DNA of 9,212 bases, from the IMG/VR virus record IMGVR_UViG_2657244931_000007, one strand, 5' to 3'. This document shows, one piece after another, positions 236-7,360 of the stretch. The DNA comes from a virus (lineage: Duplodnaviria; Heunggongvirae; Uroviricota; Caudoviricetes). Position 1 is the stretch's first letter, and every line of letters starts with the position of its first letter. A program made the position numbers and the translations under genes. The notes beneath the pieces are model-generated. The model had not been told where the DNA came from, did no database searches, and saw only the letters and a list, made by a program, of their open reading frames with translations.

Positions 236-254
236 AGGAGGCATTACGCCTCCT
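236..254. other. Inverted repeat AGGAGGC-N5-GCCTCCT overlapping the recombinase stop codon
   Basis: Perfect 7-bp arms at 236..242 and 248..254; no adjacent U-tract on the minus-strand transcript, so not a classic terminator. Confidence 0.4.
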
Positions 255-783
255 CTTCTTCCTTCTTAATTCGCTGTACCGTTGAAGGAGCAACATTAAA
301 GCTCTCGGCGGTTTTACGCACTGACACGCCAGCGGAAAGGGCTTTCTTTATACCTTCTCTATCTACTGCTTTTCCATTACCACGCTTTGTAGGATTGACG
401 GCTTGCGCTTCTCGTTTACGTTCTAGCATCAGTTCACGTTCACACGTTGCAACTGCCGACAACATCGTAAGCATCATCTTTCCCATCGCGCTTGTAATGT
501 CTGCAATGATCCCTTCTTTGTGAAATCGAACAATCACACCTCGATTATTAAGTTGTTCAACTAAAGCAAGGATGTCTAAGGTGTTACGTCCTAAACGGTC
601 GAGAGAGTGCACGTGTAAGGTGTCGCCTTCTCTCAGATAGGCTAAACACGCTTGTAAGCCTGGGCGGTTAGTGTCTTTACCAGACAGCTTATCTTCAAAG
701 ACTTTATCGAGAGTTACTCCTGCAAGCTGGCGATCAGTGTTCTGATCTACAGTGCTCACACGCTTATAACCGATATTGCTCAT
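244..783 (-). CDS. Small serine recombinase (resolvase / DNA invertase family), 179 aa
   Basis: N-terminus MSNIGYKRVSTVDQ has the catalytic serine at position 10 in the conserved Y-x-R-V-S-T context; VFEDKLSGKDTNRPGL and HVHSLDRLGRN match Hin/Gin/Tn3-resolvase catalytic-domain motifs; C-terminal helix-turn-helix (VSVRKTAESFNVAPSTVQRI). SD-like AAGGGG (complement of 790..795) sits about 6 nt upstream of the ATG at 783. Confidence 0.88.
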   Translation of the reverse strand: MSNIGYKRVSTVDQNTDRQLAGVTLDKVFEDKLSGKDTNRPGLQACLAYLREGDTLHVHSLDRLGRNTLDILALVEQLNNRGVIVRFHKEGIIADITSAMGKMMLTMLSAVATCERELMLERKREAQAVNPTKRGNGKAVDREGIKKALSAGVSVRKTAESFNVAPSTVQRIKKEEEEA

Positions 784-2294: not shown

Positions 2295-2610
2295 AATGTG
2301 TTTTATGAAGGATTCAGAGGTGTTTCATAACAGGAGTGTATAGAGGATATTTTAATTAATTAAAAATAAGGGGTCTAAATGCTTCTCTAACAACATTAAG
2401 CAGGGTAGGGAATGGAAACGCATTGCCTACACATATAAGCTCACTACAGAGCTTTACAGAGCGTTTTATAAAGTAACTCTCTATCTTATATCTACCATTA
2501 CCTTTTCATATACCTAACAAATACAAAATAAGCCCCTTAAATAAGCCTCTGGCGAGCTAAACAGCCATTACATAAGGGAATGTGTTGCTTTTATCAAAAC
2601 TTCGTTAGAA

Positions 2611-2631
2611 CGCGTTTTAGAGCGTTTTAGA
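2611..2631. repeat. Tandem GCGTTTTAGA x2, with a related AGAGCGTTTTA copy at 2458..2468
   Basis: 2612..2621 and 2622..2631 are identical 10-mers. Confidence 0.5.
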
Positions 2632-2691
2632 CAATAAGGAGGAATAGCACTACACAGAAGAGCACGAATTGCTAAGAAAAAATGTAAGTGC

Positions 2692-2753
2692 ATGAAAAAG
2701 ATCAGATTTTTTTATGAAAAGGTATTGACAAATGTTTCTTTATATGTAATAAT
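2692..2753 (+). promoter_or_regulatory. Early-operon promoter: -35 TTGACA (2725..2730), 17-bp spacer, extended -10 TGtAATAAT (2745..2753); direct repeats ATGAAAA(A/G)G (2692..2700, 2714..2722) upstream and AGGTATT (2720..2726, 2754..2760) bracketing the core
   Basis: Perfect -35 hexamer, 17-bp spacing, TG-extended -10, about 110 bp upstream of the first plus-strand gene. Confidence 0.55.
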
Positions 2754-2807
2754 AGGTATTAGAGGGACAGAAAACATTCTTCTCTAAATAATCAAAATCA
2801 ACGCACT

Positions 2808-2843
2808 TTGAAGCCGTCAGGCTTGCAAGGTGTTTTTTCTTTT
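2808..2843 (+). terminator. Leader hairpin plus T-run between promoter and first gene; attenuator-like
   Basis: Stem AAGCC (2811..2815) / GGCTT (2820..2824) with loop GTCA, extendable with mismatches; palindrome CTTGCAAG at 2822..2829; T-run 2833..2843, directly upstream of the RBS AAGGAG (2852..2857). Confidence 0.3.
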
Positions 2844-2862
2844 AACTGAATAAGGAGTTTTT

Positions 2863-3051
2863 ATGAAATGGTTTACATCGGAGCACGTCATTCAGGCATT
2901 TAAAAAAGGTGAGCTTACACGACATCAAGTAGTAATGAATCGTAATATGGCAAGGAGTCGAGGTTATCCAGAGCGTGAAAAATGTTTTGACGATGCACTG
3001 AAAATTATTGATGAACTGCGTAAAGCTGAGAAAGAAGCAGAGAAAAAATAA
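2863..3051 (+). CDS. Hypothetical small basic protein, 62 aa (first gene of early operon)
   Basis: RBS AAGGAG 5 nt upstream of the ATG; downstream gene follows with its own RBS. Confidence 0.7.
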   Translation: MKWFTSEHVIQAFKKGELTRHQVVMNRNMARSRGYPEREKCFDDALKIIDELRKAEKEAEKK

Positions 3052-3075
3052 TAGACAAGAGAAGGAGAAAACCAA

Positions 3076-3264
3076 ATGAATATTAATTTTGATTCTGCAA
3101 CTTATAACGCGTTGTTAAATCGCGCAAAGGCAGAAGGGAAATCAATTCCAAAACTTGTTAATGAACTACTAATTACAGTCCTTACAAAGGAGGAACTAAA
3201 TGATCAAAAATATCAAAACAATTGCCGAAGCGAAAGCCAAATGTCTAAATCAGAAAGATGGTAA
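3076..3264 (+). CDS. Ribbon-helix-helix (Arc/Mnt/CopG-like) DNA-binding protein, 62 aa; putative transcriptional repressor
   Basis: MNINFDSATYNALLNRAKAEGKSIPKLVNELLITVL fits a beta-strand / helix / helix RHH pattern; RBS AAGGAG at 3062..3067; 3' end overlaps the next gene by 65 nt. Confidence 0.65.
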   Translation: MNINFDSATYNALLNRAKAEGKSIPKLVNELLITVLTKEELNDQKYQNNCRSESQMSKSERW

Positions 3265-3931
3265 ACAAAAATATGTAGTTGTTGAGCAATGGTTGAAGAT
3301 GTTTAAAAAATGGTATTCACCATCTGGTAATGAATACACCGCTACACTGCCAGCCGTTGAAATCTATAGCTATATAGCTGGATTCAATGAACAAGGGCAA
3401 GAATGTTACGCTACTCAAAAAACATTAGCTAATATTGGAATGGTTAGTGATCGCCAGGTTCGCAATATTATAAATATGTTTGTTGATATGGGAGTTCTTT
3501 CTGTAGAGGCACGGGACGGTCAAACATCACTCTATAAAGCATTACCATTTACAGATGCACATATTACTCCCCCAGGAGAATCATCACTCTCTGATCTTTC
3601 TGAGGCAGAAGAAGCACAGGAACAACCTAAAGGCCATAAACAGCCTTCTTTTGATGTTCTTGATGATTGGGATGCGCCTTTGCCGTGGGAGACGGAAGAA
3701 ACACCTGTTTCATCAAGTGAAAAGGTAGCTAATGATAATGAGGAGGATGTGTTAGAGAATTTTGCCTCTCTTATCATCCAGGAGAAACACACACGAACAG
3801 GAGGAGCATCATTTATTGAGTTTGCAAATTCACTAGCTTGTAGATACGGGCTAAAACGACCAAATGGTATTGAGGCATATTTTTCTAAGCATTACCCAAA
3901 TGTATATGACGACTTTGATATTCCATTTTAA
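3200..3931 (+). CDS. Winged-helix-like DNA-binding protein with acidic C-terminal region, 243 aa; candidate replication initiator or regulator
   Basis: Strong RBS AAGGAGG (3187..3193), 6-nt spacing; segment YATQKTLANIGMVSDRQVRNIINMFVDMGVLSVEA resembles a wHTH; C-terminal half is acidic and low-complexity (SEAEEAQEQ ... DDWDAPLPWETEE). Confidence 0.75.
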   Translation: MIKNIKTIAEAKAKCLNQKDGKQKYVVVEQWLKMFKKWYSPSGNEYTATLPAVEIYSYIAGFNEQGQECYATQKTLANIGMVSDRQVRNIINMFVDMGVLSVEARDGQTSLYKALPFTDAHITPPGESSLSDLSEAEEAQEQPKGHKQPSFDVLDDWDAPLPWETEETPVSSSEKVANDNEEDVLENFASLIIQEKHTRTGGASFIEFANSLACRYGLKRPNGIEAYFSKHYPNVYDDFDIPF

Positions 3932-5103: not shown

Positions 5104-5120
5104 GCAACAAAAAAGTTGTA
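5104..5120. promoter_or_regulatory. 17-bp element GCAACAAAAAAGTTGTA (CAAC-N6-GTTG inverted repeat), copy 1, 7 bp upstream of the late -35
   Basis: 15/17 identical to the copy at 5390..5406. Confidence 0.5.
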
Positions 5121-5127
5121 AAATATC

Positions 5128-5156
5128 TTGACATTTCATATATTGTATGTTAATAT
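5128..5156 (+). promoter_or_regulatory. Late-operon promoter: -35 TTGACA (5128..5133), 17-bp spacer, TG-extended -10 TAATAT (5151..5156)
   Basis: Same architecture as the early promoter at 2725. Confidence 0.55.
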
Positions 5157-5162
5157 AATTAT

Positions 5163-5380
5163 ATAGGGGTGATTATTTTTCCTTTATTGGTTCGATATTA
5201 AAAATTCTTCTTGTCGTTAAAGGGGAGTAAAATCTCCGCTCCCCGCTTCTCCTCCTCCTTAAGTGTCATTATTACCTCTTTTTTCCTTTGTTATGCATAC
5301 ATCTTGGAGTATGCATAACATAGGGTAATTACATAGGTACAAGTTAATAAAAGGCGGCTTTAAATGCTGCCTTTTATTTT
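5163..5380 (+). ncRNA. Candidate ~215-nt leader or small RNA from the late promoter to the intrinsic terminator
   Basis: Contains hairpin GGGGAG/CTCCCC (5222..5244), CU-rich anti-SD-like tract CTTCTCCTCCTCCTT (5246..5260), perfect 11-bp inverted repeat GTTATGCATAC-N8-GTATGCATAAC (5290..5319), and ends at the terminator 5352..5380; no convincing ORF inside. Confidence 0.35.
5352..5380 (+). terminator. Rho-independent terminator (stem AGGCGGC / GCUGCCU with one G-U pair, loop UUUAAAU, then UUUUAUUUU)
   Basis: 7-bp stem at 5352..5358 / 5366..5372, followed by the T-run 5373..5380. Confidence 0.55.
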
Positions 5381-5389
5381 GCCCGTTAT

Positions 5390-5406
5390 GCAACTTAAAA
5401 GTTGTA
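5390..5406. promoter_or_regulatory. 17-bp element GCAACTTAAAAGTTGTA, copy 2, just past the leader terminator and 37 bp upstream of the 5443 gene
   Basis: 15/17 identical to the copy at 5104..5120. Confidence 0.5.
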
Positions 5407-5442
5407 TTTCTTACTTTAAACAAGGTAACAAGGTTTATATAA

Positions 5443-5655
5443 ATGTTGTTCTTAAATGATAAAGAGCAAATCATCAAGTATAAAGATGAAATGCTGAAAA
5501 TTAATCCACAAATTACCGAAATGGTAGCTAAATACGCTGGGTGTTCTGTCGAGGAAGTAGAAAGATGTGTTGAAAAATATTTTTCTCCTTCTTCTCCGTC
5601 TACACCTTCCCTTAATGAATTAATCAAATTAAAAGCTAAGGAGATTACTAAATGA
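5443..5655 (+). CDS. Hypothetical protein, 70 aa, first gene of the structural operon
   Basis: ATGA start/stop overlap with the next gene suggests translational coupling; weak SD AAGG upstream. Confidence 0.6.
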   Translation: MLFLNDKEQIIKYKDEMLKINPQITEMVAKYAGCSVEEVERCVEKYFSPSSPSTPSLNELIKLKAKEITK

Positions 5656-6023
5656 TTATTGATTTAGACACTCTTTTTCCAAGTCGAAAGACGTTTACAG
5701 ATCTGGTGGCTTATTGTACTGATCCGTTTGCCTCTGTAGAAAACAAGGTTTTTGCTTCTCTTCCTGCTGATGTTGAATGCGGAGACTTGATCACCAGCAC
5801 TGGCGCTAAATATGAATCAGGAGATGATATCTATGTTGTTATGAGTGAATTTGTAACTGCTGATTCAAATAAAACAGTTAACGTGCTTCGTGCTAATGCC
5901 GGACTCGTTTGCATCAAAGCTGATGCCCTGAATGCCGAAGGCGCTGTAAAAGAAGCTGCTATTGCAGCTCTCGCTGCTAAAGGCTTCCAGCTTGAAGGCT
6001 TTAATACGGTTTTCACTTCTTAA
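5652..6023 (+). CDS. Hypothetical protein, 123 aa; decoration-protein-like by position and size only
   Basis: RBS AAGGAG at 5638..5643; immediately upstream of the capsid-like gene; no sequence resemblance to a known decoration protein was recognised. Confidence 0.7.
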   Translation: MIIDLDTLFPSRKTFTDLVAYCTDPFASVENKVFASLPADVECGDLITSTGAKYESGDDIYVVMSEFVTADSNKTVNVLRANAGLVCIKADALNAEGAVKEAAIAALAAKGFQLEGFNTVFTS

Positions 6024-6041
6024 TAAAAGGAATAATAATAA

Positions 6042-7070
6042 ATGATTCTAGGTAATGATTACGTTGATTTAGCTCCTCTGTTCTCTGCGCATAGCACTAG
6101 AAATTATCTGCTTTCTACTCTTGATTTTACGGATTCTGTAGGGGTTACATCTCATAAAGTAGCTGTTTCCCAGCTTGTCGAAAGCAACGAATCTCTCTTT
6201 AACAAAGAGACAAGCCGTTTTAGTTCTGAACACAATGTTACTAAGCGAGAACAAGGTAAAGAATGGCTGATCGAAATCCCTTACTTCCTGCGTGAGGATG
6301 TTATCCGTCCCTCTGATGTTCAAGGCAAACGTAAGTCTGGCACTGATTTTCAGGAAACACTCACTGATATTTATGCGGAATATATCGCTAAACACCACGT
6401 AGCGTATCAGCGCACTAAAGAGAGCGTGCTGGCGGCTTCTTTGTTCTCTGGCAAAACTTACACGCCTAAAACTGATGATGTGTTAATTGAGTGGGGCAAG
6501 CTGTTTAACGTATCAGCTATGAAAGCCACTGTGAACGCCTCCAGCACTGACACCACGAAGATTTTTAAAGAATTTGATCAGATTGCTACTGACATTATCG
6601 AAAAAGCACAAAGCCAGGCGGCTGCTGTAGAGCGTATTGTTGTTTTCTGTAAGCCGGAAGCCTTCTCTGCAATTCGATTCTCTGCTGGTATGGCAAACGC
6701 ATTCCAGTACGTAAGCCCACTGGAAGAAGGGAACGTTGTGTATCAGCGTCGTGACCTGCTACCAGGAGTGACAGCGTTCACTATTCCAGGAACTAACATT
6801 GATGTTGTTAAACTGGTAGATCCGCTACACCTGGCACATATGACCGCAGACGCTGTAGCTGTGCCTAAATTCGCTAAAGGCTCTAACGTATATCAGAACA
6901 TCTACGGGGCTGCTTCCAGCACCTTTGAACTGATCAATGCCGATCCTACTGAGGTGTACAGCTATAGCTATGAATCTTCTCGTGGTGATGCTGTGAACGT
7001 TGTTACAGAGAATAGCCAGATGGTTGTAAACCACGGTGTAGGCTTCTCCGTTCAAATCACTGTTAAATAA
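6042..7070 (+). CDS. Putative phage major capsid protein, 342 aa (possibly lambda gpE-like; tentative)
   Basis: Size, beta-rich composition, and a strong intrinsic terminator directly downstream, as often seen after major capsid genes. Short segments (LAASLFSGKTYTPK, DLLPGVTAFTIPG) loosely recall lambda gpE from memory; not verified. Confidence 0.45.
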   Translation: MILGNDYVDLAPLFSAHSTRNYLLSTLDFTDSVGVTSHKVAVSQLVESNESLFNKETSRFSSEHNVTKREQGKEWLIEIPYFLREDVIRPSDVQGKRKSGTDFQETLTDIYAEYIAKHHVAYQRTKESVLAASLFSGKTYTPKTDDVLIEWGKLFNVSAMKATVNASSTDTTKIFKEFDQIATDIIEKAQSQAAAVERIVVFCKPEAFSAIRFSAGMANAFQYVSPLEEGNVVYQRRDLLPGVTAFTIPGTNIDVVKLVDPLHLAHMTADAVAVPKFAKGSNVYQNIYGAASSTFELINADPTEVYSYSYESSRGDAVNVVTENSQMVVNHGVGFSVQITVK

Positions 7071-7089
7071 TATTTTAACGTGTAATAGA

Positions 7090-7123
7090 GGCGTGGCGTG
7101 TATTCACGCTTCGCCTTTTTTTT
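7090..7123 (+). terminator. Strong rho-independent terminator after the capsid-like gene
   Basis: GC-rich stem GGCGTGGCGTG / CACGCTTCGCC (7090..7115) with TATT loop, followed by 8 Ts (7116..7123) and more T-rich sequence. Confidence 0.75.
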
Positions 7124-7156
7124 ATTTATTTTTAAATTTTGAGAGGTGATTAAAAT

Positions 7157-7360
7157 ATGGAAGTGATTTTGAAATCAAAAAATGGTGTACACGTACATTT
7201 AGATGCTAATGATTCTAGAGGCTTGTTAAATCTGAAATATCTATGTTCTCTCTTAGATGTTCCATATGAAGGCGTAAAAGCCCGTATGTTCAGACTAAAC
7301 GAGAGTATTGATCAGGCTCTACACCATTTCTTAAGCAAAGAAGGTGATAAAAATGATTAA
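7157..7360 (+). CDS. Hypothetical protein, 67 aa
   Basis: RBS GAGAGGTGA at 7141..7149; only about 34 bp after the terminator, so likely expressed by read-through. Confidence 0.6.
   Translation: MEVILKSKNGVHVHLDANDSRGLLNLKYLCSLLDVPYEGVKARMFRLNESIDQALHHFLSKEGDKND

Follow-up and report, generated by a model that had tools for sequence, protein, structure and literature searches.

The window analysed here, a 9,212-nt stretch of Caudoviricetes DNA (IMG/VR record IMGVR_UViG_2657244931_000007), contains at positions 5128-5442 a cassette of promoter, non-coding RNA and intrinsic terminator, which is a real and strongly conserved unit at the junction of early and late genes. The cassette lies in a chromosomal island of Escherichia coli that is probably a satellite of phi92-type virulent myoviruses. 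We give an even chance to the interpretation that it is the gated leader of the satellite's late operon, with a short RNA as the default product. A preliminary description of the same DNA had listed a strong promoter, a structured leader of about 215 nt, an intrinsic terminator and capsid-type genes. All features listed there were present, whereas two palindromes around the cassette and a second terminator (T2) had been overlooked (Table 1).

The putative promoter, an extended -10 sequence of the sigma-70 type (TTGACA-17-TG-n-TAATAT), scored 10 of 12 hexamer positions plus the extended -10 motif in a promoter scan. Promoter-like matches across the whole window were not above chance (19 found, 25.6 expected), and because a single match of this kind proves little, the support for the promoter comes from its conservation. 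A near-consensus TTGACA-17-TGnTAnnAT sequence was present at the equivalent site in nearly all of 85 distinct upstream regions, and in every relative the cassette had the orientation of the late genes. The intergenic regions in the structural block of phi92 carry TTGACA-N17-TGtTAnAnT sequences, which we read as promoters, so that the cassette promoter would fit the transcription style of the presumed helper. In one E. coli genome (NZ_CP116925.1) the match to the cassette begins only at window position 5167; the promoter appears to be replaced or disrupted there, and this genome may hold a natural promoter-less variant.

The structured leader was borne out by folding. The + strand of the presumed RNA, from 5163 to about 5380, had a predicted folding energy of -63.5 kcal/mol compared to -41.1 +/- 3.9 kcal/mol for shuffled sequences (z = -5.8), and the - strand folded less well (-53.3 kcal/mol, z = -4.4). 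In the predicted structure a stem encloses the 5' end, and a hairpin plus U-tail forms the 3' end. The previously noted GGGGAG/CTCCCC hairpin was recovered in the minimum free energy fold, in the centroid fold and in a consensus fold computed from 25 distinct variants. The tract adjoining it, with CUCCUCCUCC at 5249-5258, is part of a longer CU tract that was mostly unpaired in the predicted folds. The number of CTC units at 5249-5258 differs among near-identical islands in a microsatellite-like manner, and variants carry a 10-nt insertion beside the tract. The perfect 11-bp inverted repeat, also described before, was identified by a repeat finder as the core (5290-5300/5309-5319) of a long hairpin with 94% complementary arms. 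This hairpin was kept in all variants, and the sole substitution in its stem, A to G, preserves a G-U pair. Rfam 15 gave no match at E <= 1 in 5128-5442 or in the equivalent regions of six relatives. Two weak Rfam matches, snR56 and caiA, fell outside the cassette region and look like chance; the caiA match at 7071-7156 reached 28.9 bits (threshold 55.5) and probably reflects no more than the terminator hairpin there. The C/G ratio, considered with regard to a Rho site, was moderate over 5183-5320 (2-2.4), and higher values occurred elsewhere in the window.

The claimed intrinsic terminator (T1) was located by the repeat finder, with arms at 5346-5361/5363-5378, and appeared as a 13-bp stem in the ViennaRNA fold. 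A simple terminator scan did not list T1, probably because its A/U extension uses up the T-run. T1 is the one clear terminator on the + strand that transcripts from the cassette promoter and from the early-operon promoter at 2725 would both encounter. The capsid-type genes expected downstream were substantiated by a major capsid protein of family PF03864. A scan of the + strand revealed no sigma-70-like promoter between 5157 and 6010 and none between T2 and the tail genes; likewise, in representatives of the other cassette types the interval from the capsid-gene terminator to the tail genes contained no strong promoter. With two terminators and no sigma-70-like promoter between, the late genes would be fed only by the cassette promoter and, further back, by the promoter at 2725. 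A strong terminator directly after the capsid gene, with promoterless tail genes behind it, was also present in all relatives examined and in phi92 itself.

To survey the conservation of the unit, 346 bp around the cassette were compared with 5,426 complete E. coli genomes. The cassette was found in 307 of them (about 6%) with 90-100% identity, none in an inverted or deleted form. No meaningful DNA similarity of the cassette to phages was obtained. Over 31 distinct loci, nucleotide diversity was 0.031 in the RNA (5163-5380), compared to 0.04-0.17 for third codon positions in genes next to it. The 62 nt past T1 had a diversity of 0.007, with three of 62 sites variable, and were the best-conserved part of the locus. 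Diversities this low indicate purifying selection on the cassette. Indels of 1, 3, 10 and 17 nt occur among the RNA variants, hence no reading frame is conserved on either strand. The consensus fold of the 25 variants comprised 43 base pairs with 99.9% pairing, four one-sided changes and no compensatory change, so that covariation is unable to confirm the fold within this type. Variable columns were rarer in paired positions (5 of 86) than in unpaired ones (52 of 142; Fisher p = 4e-8, a count inflated by multi-column indels).

Covariation was present in positional homologues of the RNA. About 120 loci were collected for a family comparison, with capsid homologues in Citrobacter, Klebsiella, Enterobacter, Cronobacter, Dryocola and Serratia. 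Nearly all loci contained a trio of a 64-86-aa open reading frame (ORF), an ORF of about 120 aa and the capsid gene. The non-coding stretch ahead of this trio was 300-980 nt long and fell into at least five sequence types without mutual BLAST similarity; it ended in a hairpin and U-run located 50-115 nt ahead of the first late ORF. A Serratia locus (38% capsid identity) and a metagenome locus (52%) showed the same layout. In type B, 29 of 46 predicted pairs were compensatory with 95.6% pairing, whereas controls with slid partners gave 5-12 such pairs and about 50% pairing; in type D, three compensatory pairs were found in seven sequences. Because of this covariation, the positional homologues are best regarded as real structured RNAs whose position is conserved while the sequence is replaced. 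The types have in common a 5' G-run that forms part of a terminal stem, and an excess of CCUCC motifs: over nine unrelated cassette types CCUCC occurred 14 times compared to 3.1 expected (4.5-fold) and CUCC 46 times compared to 15, and GGAGG was absent. Beyond the G-run and the CCUCC motifs, no common structure or sequence was found among the RNA types. Larger positional homologues of 660-980 nt, without Rfam match, lie in the loci L016 (5646-6639), L015 (5788-6667) and L081 (about 5740-6400). Types C and E have two terminators in the non-coding region and a common block with apparent compensatory changes, CGGTTAGCCACCG versus CGATTAGCCGTCG.

The two overlooked palindromes form a direct repeat with 88% identity, and each copy is palindromic by itself (AAC-N6-GTT). 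In types A, B and E and in the 52% relative, 33 AAC-N6-GTT sites were counted compared to 5.6 expected; the site at the promoter, beside it or within it, has a fixed position in four types (A, B, E and F). The first site is positioned 22 nt before the -35 hexamer or within the promoter spacer (the latter in types B and E), the second 33-62 nt upstream of the start codon of the first late ORF. A site within the 17-bp spacer of a promoter is typical of a repressor. Considering this location and a distance of the second site that is too variable for an activator, a single DNA-binding regulator, more likely a repressor, would act at both ends of the cassette. The palindrome type did not correlate with any single early protein. 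Equivalents of the paired palindromes were seen in loci L081, L097, L015, L099, L104 and L122, and types C and D carry other, GGAA..TTCC-like palindromes instead. An interpretation of the palindromes as invertase sites was dismissed given the uniform orientation in the 307 genomes. A T4-type late promoter, with TATAAAT over the start codon at 5438-5445, was also rejected: 50 kb of structural genes in phi92 contain TATAAATA only once, and a transcript from such a promoter would begin past the ATG in types A and C. Between the post-terminator spacer and the intergenic regions of phi92, common 9-11-mers were at chance level only.

Table 1. Features of the cassette and of neighbouring genes in the 9,212-nt window
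Feature	Position	Strand	Remarks
Serine recombinase gene	244-783		Pfam/PHROG profile matches
Early-operon promoter	2725-2753	+	near-consensus, 11/12 plus TG
Gene directly upstream of the cassette, 111-120 aa	4763-5098	+	last of the early operon; not Q-like
Palindrome 1, GCAACAAAAAAGTTGTA	5104-5120		ends 8 bp upstream of -35; candidate protein-binding site
Putative sigma-70 promoter, extended -10	5128-5156	+	TTGACA 5128-5133, 17-nt spacer, TG 5148-5149, TAATAT 5151-5156
Non-coding RNA, about 215 nt	5163-5380	+	presumed start near 5163; end at the terminator U-run
GGGGAG(U)...CUCCCC hairpin	5222-5244	+	GGGGAG 5222-5227 / CTCCCC 5239-5244
CU tract CUUCUCCUCCUCCUU	5246-5260	+	resembles 16S rRNA 3' end (CCUCCUUA)
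Long hairpin	5285-5324	+	16-nt arms 5285-5300/5309-5324; 8-nt loop containing GGA
Intrinsic terminator T1	5344-5380	+	GGCGGC 5353-5358 / GCTGCC 5366-5371, A/U extension, then TTTTATTTT 5372-5380
Post-T1 spacer	5381-5442	+	holds palindrome 2 and tandem AACAAGGT x2 (5419-5434)
Palindrome 2, GCAACTTAAAAGTTGTA	5390-5406		in the post-T1 spacer
First late ORF, 70 aa	5443-5655	+	no Pfam/PHROG/NCBIfam match
123-aa ORF	5652-6023	+	position of the head-decoration gene in phi92
Major capsid protein (lambda gpE-type family)	6042-7070	+	Pfam PF03864, E = 2.4e-14
Intrinsic terminator T2	7088-7112	+	after the capsid gene; tail genes next, without promoter
67-aa ORF	7157-7360	+	precedes the tape-measure gene
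Tape-measure-like protein, 609 aa	7375-9204	+	phrog_16051, E = 3.9e-54

The window is part of a larger island (coordinates 7030-19302 in locus L001), and at least 80% of the window was present in 265 complete E. coli genomes. In NZ_CP062871 the island measures about 12 kb and is bounded by a tRNA-Thr gene beside proA and by a tyrosine integrase. A serine recombinase gene is followed by a 2-kb gene-free stretch, the strong promoter at 2725-2753, small ORFs, a gene for a replication-initiator-like protein (HTH_36), three ORFs of no assigned function and the cassette; then come the 70-aa and 123-aa ORFs, the capsid gene with its terminator, the 67-aa ORF, the genes for the tape-measure and Dit-like (237 aa) proteins and the integrase gene. 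Annotation as well as Pfam and PHROG searches revealed no terminase, portal, sheath or tube genes in the island. The tape-measure-like protein resembles those of phi92, phAPEC8 and rV5-type myoviruses. Identities to phi92 amount to 61% for the Dit-like protein (gp135), 32-53% for the tape-measure protein (gp134) and 22% for the capsid protein (gp124; E = 2e-7), and the late-gene order mirrors that of phi92. The synteny of the 123-aa ORF is conserved, and its product is the positional analogue of phi92 gp123, without sequence similarity. Three patches (3062-3228, 3295-3555 and 162-236) are 96-99% identical to 'hypothetical protein' genes of Stephanstirmvirinae-type E. coli phages (muut, inny, Mt1B1_P17, PaulScherrer and VEcB), which points to recent exchange of DNA between the island and its presumed helpers. 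As in satellites, there is a tRNA attachment site with an integrase, a small size, a partial set of virion genes and genes related to those of a presumed helper. Given that the island's own capsid, tape-measure and Dit-like proteins are related to those of phi92, the genetic context is a probable phage satellite and not a lambdoid prophage. A literature search found no published description of such an island; judging from its gene content, it appears to represent a family of phage satellites not described before, with relatives in at least seven enterobacterial genera.

In the scheme that we propose for the gated leader, host RNA polymerase with sigma-70 would initiate at the near-consensus extended -10 promoter, synthesize about 215 nt of stable, extensively folded non-coding RNA and by default stop at T1. 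Since no sigma-70-type promoter was detected behind T1, the late genes, that is the 70-aa and 123-aa ORFs, the capsid gene and, past T2, the genes for the tape-measure and Dit-like proteins, would depend entirely for their expression on polymerases that get past both T1 and T2. Such read-through may be the result of regulated antitermination or of calibrated leakage. The two AAC-N6-GTT palindromes are probably operators of a DNA-binding regulator, which may keep the unit quiet until a helper phage infects the cell. The short terminated RNA may in addition have a function of its own.

In lambdoid phages, late control consists of the promoter PR', a short terminated 6S RNA, the terminator tR' and the antiterminator Q. 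The preliminary description had drawn a parallel to this arrangement. The parallel holds for the layout: a strong sigma-70 promoter and an intrinsic terminator lie within about 200 nt of each other, ahead of structural genes that lack such a promoter, and by analogy a constitutive-looking promoter would deliver a default transcript of about 200 nt and leave the structural genes dependent on read-through. For the control system it finds no support. Unlike its lambdoid counterpart, the cassette comes without a recognisable Q gene and without a conserved pause or Q-binding element that could be seen, is bracketed by operator-like palindromes and resides in a probable satellite related to phi92-type virulent phages. 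The 111-aa protein encoded directly upstream gave no match in Pfam, PHROG or NCBIfam. AlphaFold modelled it as an antiparallel three-helix bundle with a pLDDT of 88.6, for which no PDB fold match was obtained at E <= 0.001; the top matches were designed bundles and allergens. The model of another conserved upstream protein (136 aa) was unusable (pLDDT 53). A check by eye for a pause element yielded a 4/6 match, GATTAT at 5171-5176, and across types only the G-run at the start was conserved. With an upstream protein that is not recognisably Q-like and no conserved pause element seen, the layout is lambda-like, yet membership in a Q system is unsupported.

Several observations weigh against a gated leader. 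Pfam, PHROG and NCBIfam profiles detected no Q, N or other known antiterminator among the island proteins, and no conserved promoter-proximal, -10-like pause element was seen across the relatives. Six of 10 nt in the CU tract are paired with the 5' arm of T1 in the predicted nascent fold, a pairing that could hypothetically serve as a classical antiterminator alternative; it was inconsistent in other cassette types. Because the promoter looks constitutive, tight silencing would need either a repressor, to which only the palindromes point, or a very efficient T1. The RNAs of the relatives, up to about 950 nt, far exceed in length and in structure what a simple leader would require. Finally, the best-conserved segment, the 62 nt past T1, could hold a helper-dependent promoter that is invisible to a sigma-70 scan, in which case the RNA would be an independent gene.

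The last point leads to a stand-alone, trans-acting RNA, with the late genes transcribed from a separate helper-dependent promoter in these 62 nt. Its role might be, for example, that of an immunity or specificity determinant, or it might act against messages of the helper via CU motifs that resemble an anti-Shine-Dalgarno (SD) sequence. We consider this alternative possible but rather doubtful. The unit is self-contained with its own strong promoter and terminator, the RNA has the 5' stem and the 3' hairpin with U-tail of stable small RNAs, and conservation within a type together with unrelatedness between types is the pattern of a specificity determinant. The CCUCC enrichment and the lack of GGAGG in the nine unrelated cassettes would suit an RNA directed at phi92 genes, which are annotated with strong AGGAG/GGAGG ribosome-binding sites, and the highly conserved spacer has a palindrome of its own. 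These arguments are countered by the target searches: in duplex scans with the entire RNA and with the CU tract against the window and 45-95 kb of phi92, no target in the island or in these 50 kb scored above shuffled sequences. The earlier proposal that the tract could pair with SD-like sequences agrees with the family-wide excess of CCUCC and may hold, though the target scans lent it no support. As a candidate seed, the tract is largely unpaired, but its length is variable and a 10-nt insertion adjoins it. Furthermore, there is no recognisable promoter past T1, the interval of 33-62 nt between palindrome 2 and the start codon has no fixed promoter geometry, and the orientation of the cassette is always that of the late genes. 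In Shiga-toxin phages, the short transcript ended at the terminator after an always-active late promoter is reported to be itself a regulatory small RNA, StxS (PMC7547250), and on this precedent one RNA could be both at once, leader as well as small RNA. The RNA of the cassette likewise ends in a Rho-independent terminator hairpin with U-tail, but it has no sequence or Rfam relationship to StxS and belongs to a different element with a different helper.

A special case of the gated leader would be cis-acting antitermination as in phage HK022, in which the RNA modifies its own polymerase to pass T1 and T2 and regulation takes place at the promoter via the palindromes. The put RNAs of HK022 act in cis without a protein and are about 70 nt long with two defined stem-loops. 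By analogy, the cassette also offers a structured RNA that starts right past the promoter, ahead of two terminators and the genes, with no promoters between. The lack of a protein antiterminator in Pfam, PHROG, NCBIfam and PDB fold searches and the operator-like palindromes at the promoter, overlapping its spacer in types B and E, are in line with such a mechanism. We nevertheless regard it as improbable, for the RNAs differ from put in structure and size (215-950 nt) and the five or more types have nothing in common beyond the 5' G-run and CCUCC. More improbable still, and by a clear step, is a role at the level of the DNA, as packaging site, replication origin or recombination cassette, with promoter and terminator being incidental. 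Two 17-bp palindromic repeats around a 286-bp segment, a serine recombinase encoded in the same island and unrelated sequences in the same slot across types, as if cassettes were exchanged, could suggest it. It is contradicted by the better folding of the + strand, by the G-U-preserving substitution in the long hairpin, by the covariation in positional homologues and by the conservation of a near-consensus promoter and a terminator in every type. The 307 genomes are without inverted or deleted versions, and Hin/Gin-type sites are longer than the cassette palindromes.

Returning to the gated leader, a parallel in a satellite is the immunity of P4, in which a CI RNA from the leader of a constitutive promoter causes premature termination and thereby controls replication genes. 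The likeness consists in a satellite, a constitutive-looking promoter, transcripts that would end early in the resident state and a possible type-specific control by RNA; the difference is that capsid genes would be controlled here and replication genes are controlled in P4. Rfam, whose models include the C4/CI antisense family, gave no match for the cassette. Repeated target boxes of the P4 seqA/seqC type were not found; besides the hairpins there were only short arms with 74-85% complementarity, and duplexes were no better than those of shuffled sequences. Satellites that remodel the virions of virulent phages are known from the Vibrio PLE (PMC10002752) and from capsid-forming phage-inducible chromosomal islands (PICIs). 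The present island resembles them as a small integrated element with an incomplete virion set and with morphogenesis genes that are akin to those of a helper or act on them. Unlike them, it encodes capsid, tape-measure and Dit-like proteins of its own, and its gene content fits no family named in the literature found.

Outside the cassette, the 2-kb stretch beside the recombinase gene (784-2860) is without an ORF of note. Blocks at 1108-1862 and 2489-3072 retain 80-93% identity in otherwise divergent relatives, and the stretch may contain an origin, a packaging site or further RNAs. A scan for tRNA and tmRNA genes detected none. The first ORF of the early operon (62 aa; 2863-3051) matched the NCBIfam entry 'RNA-binding regulator' with 17 bits compared to a cut-off of 100, which we take as a lead only; no literature was found on it.

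To our knowledge, little is known about the timing of late genes in satellites of virulent phages. An entire block of capsid and tail genes behind one unit of promoter, RNA and terminator would be a compact and testable control point. The RNA matches no Rfam family, and no paper on its island was found even though the cassette occurs in about 6% of complete E. coli genomes and has relatives in several other enterobacterial genera. The tight conservation within a type as opposed to full replacement between types suggests an RNA-based specificity system. In a wider interpretation, which is tentative and on balance unlikely, the cassette would be one allele of a fast-evolving 'RNA slot' in undescribed satellites of phi92/rV5-type virulent myoviruses, where each lineage carries a different, highly expressed, structured and CCUCC-rich RNA of 215-950 nt as a switch or specificity determinant. 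If so, the RNA could sense infection by the helper and open its own terminator, whereupon the satellite makes its own capsid and tape-measure protein; alternatively, it could damp the translation of the helper's late messages with their strong SD sequences. Should the element build its own small capsid and set its own tail length, this would be relevant to phage therapy with phi92/rV5-type phages. A satellite family with a variable RNA slot would be a more unusual finding than the control exerted by the cassette itself.

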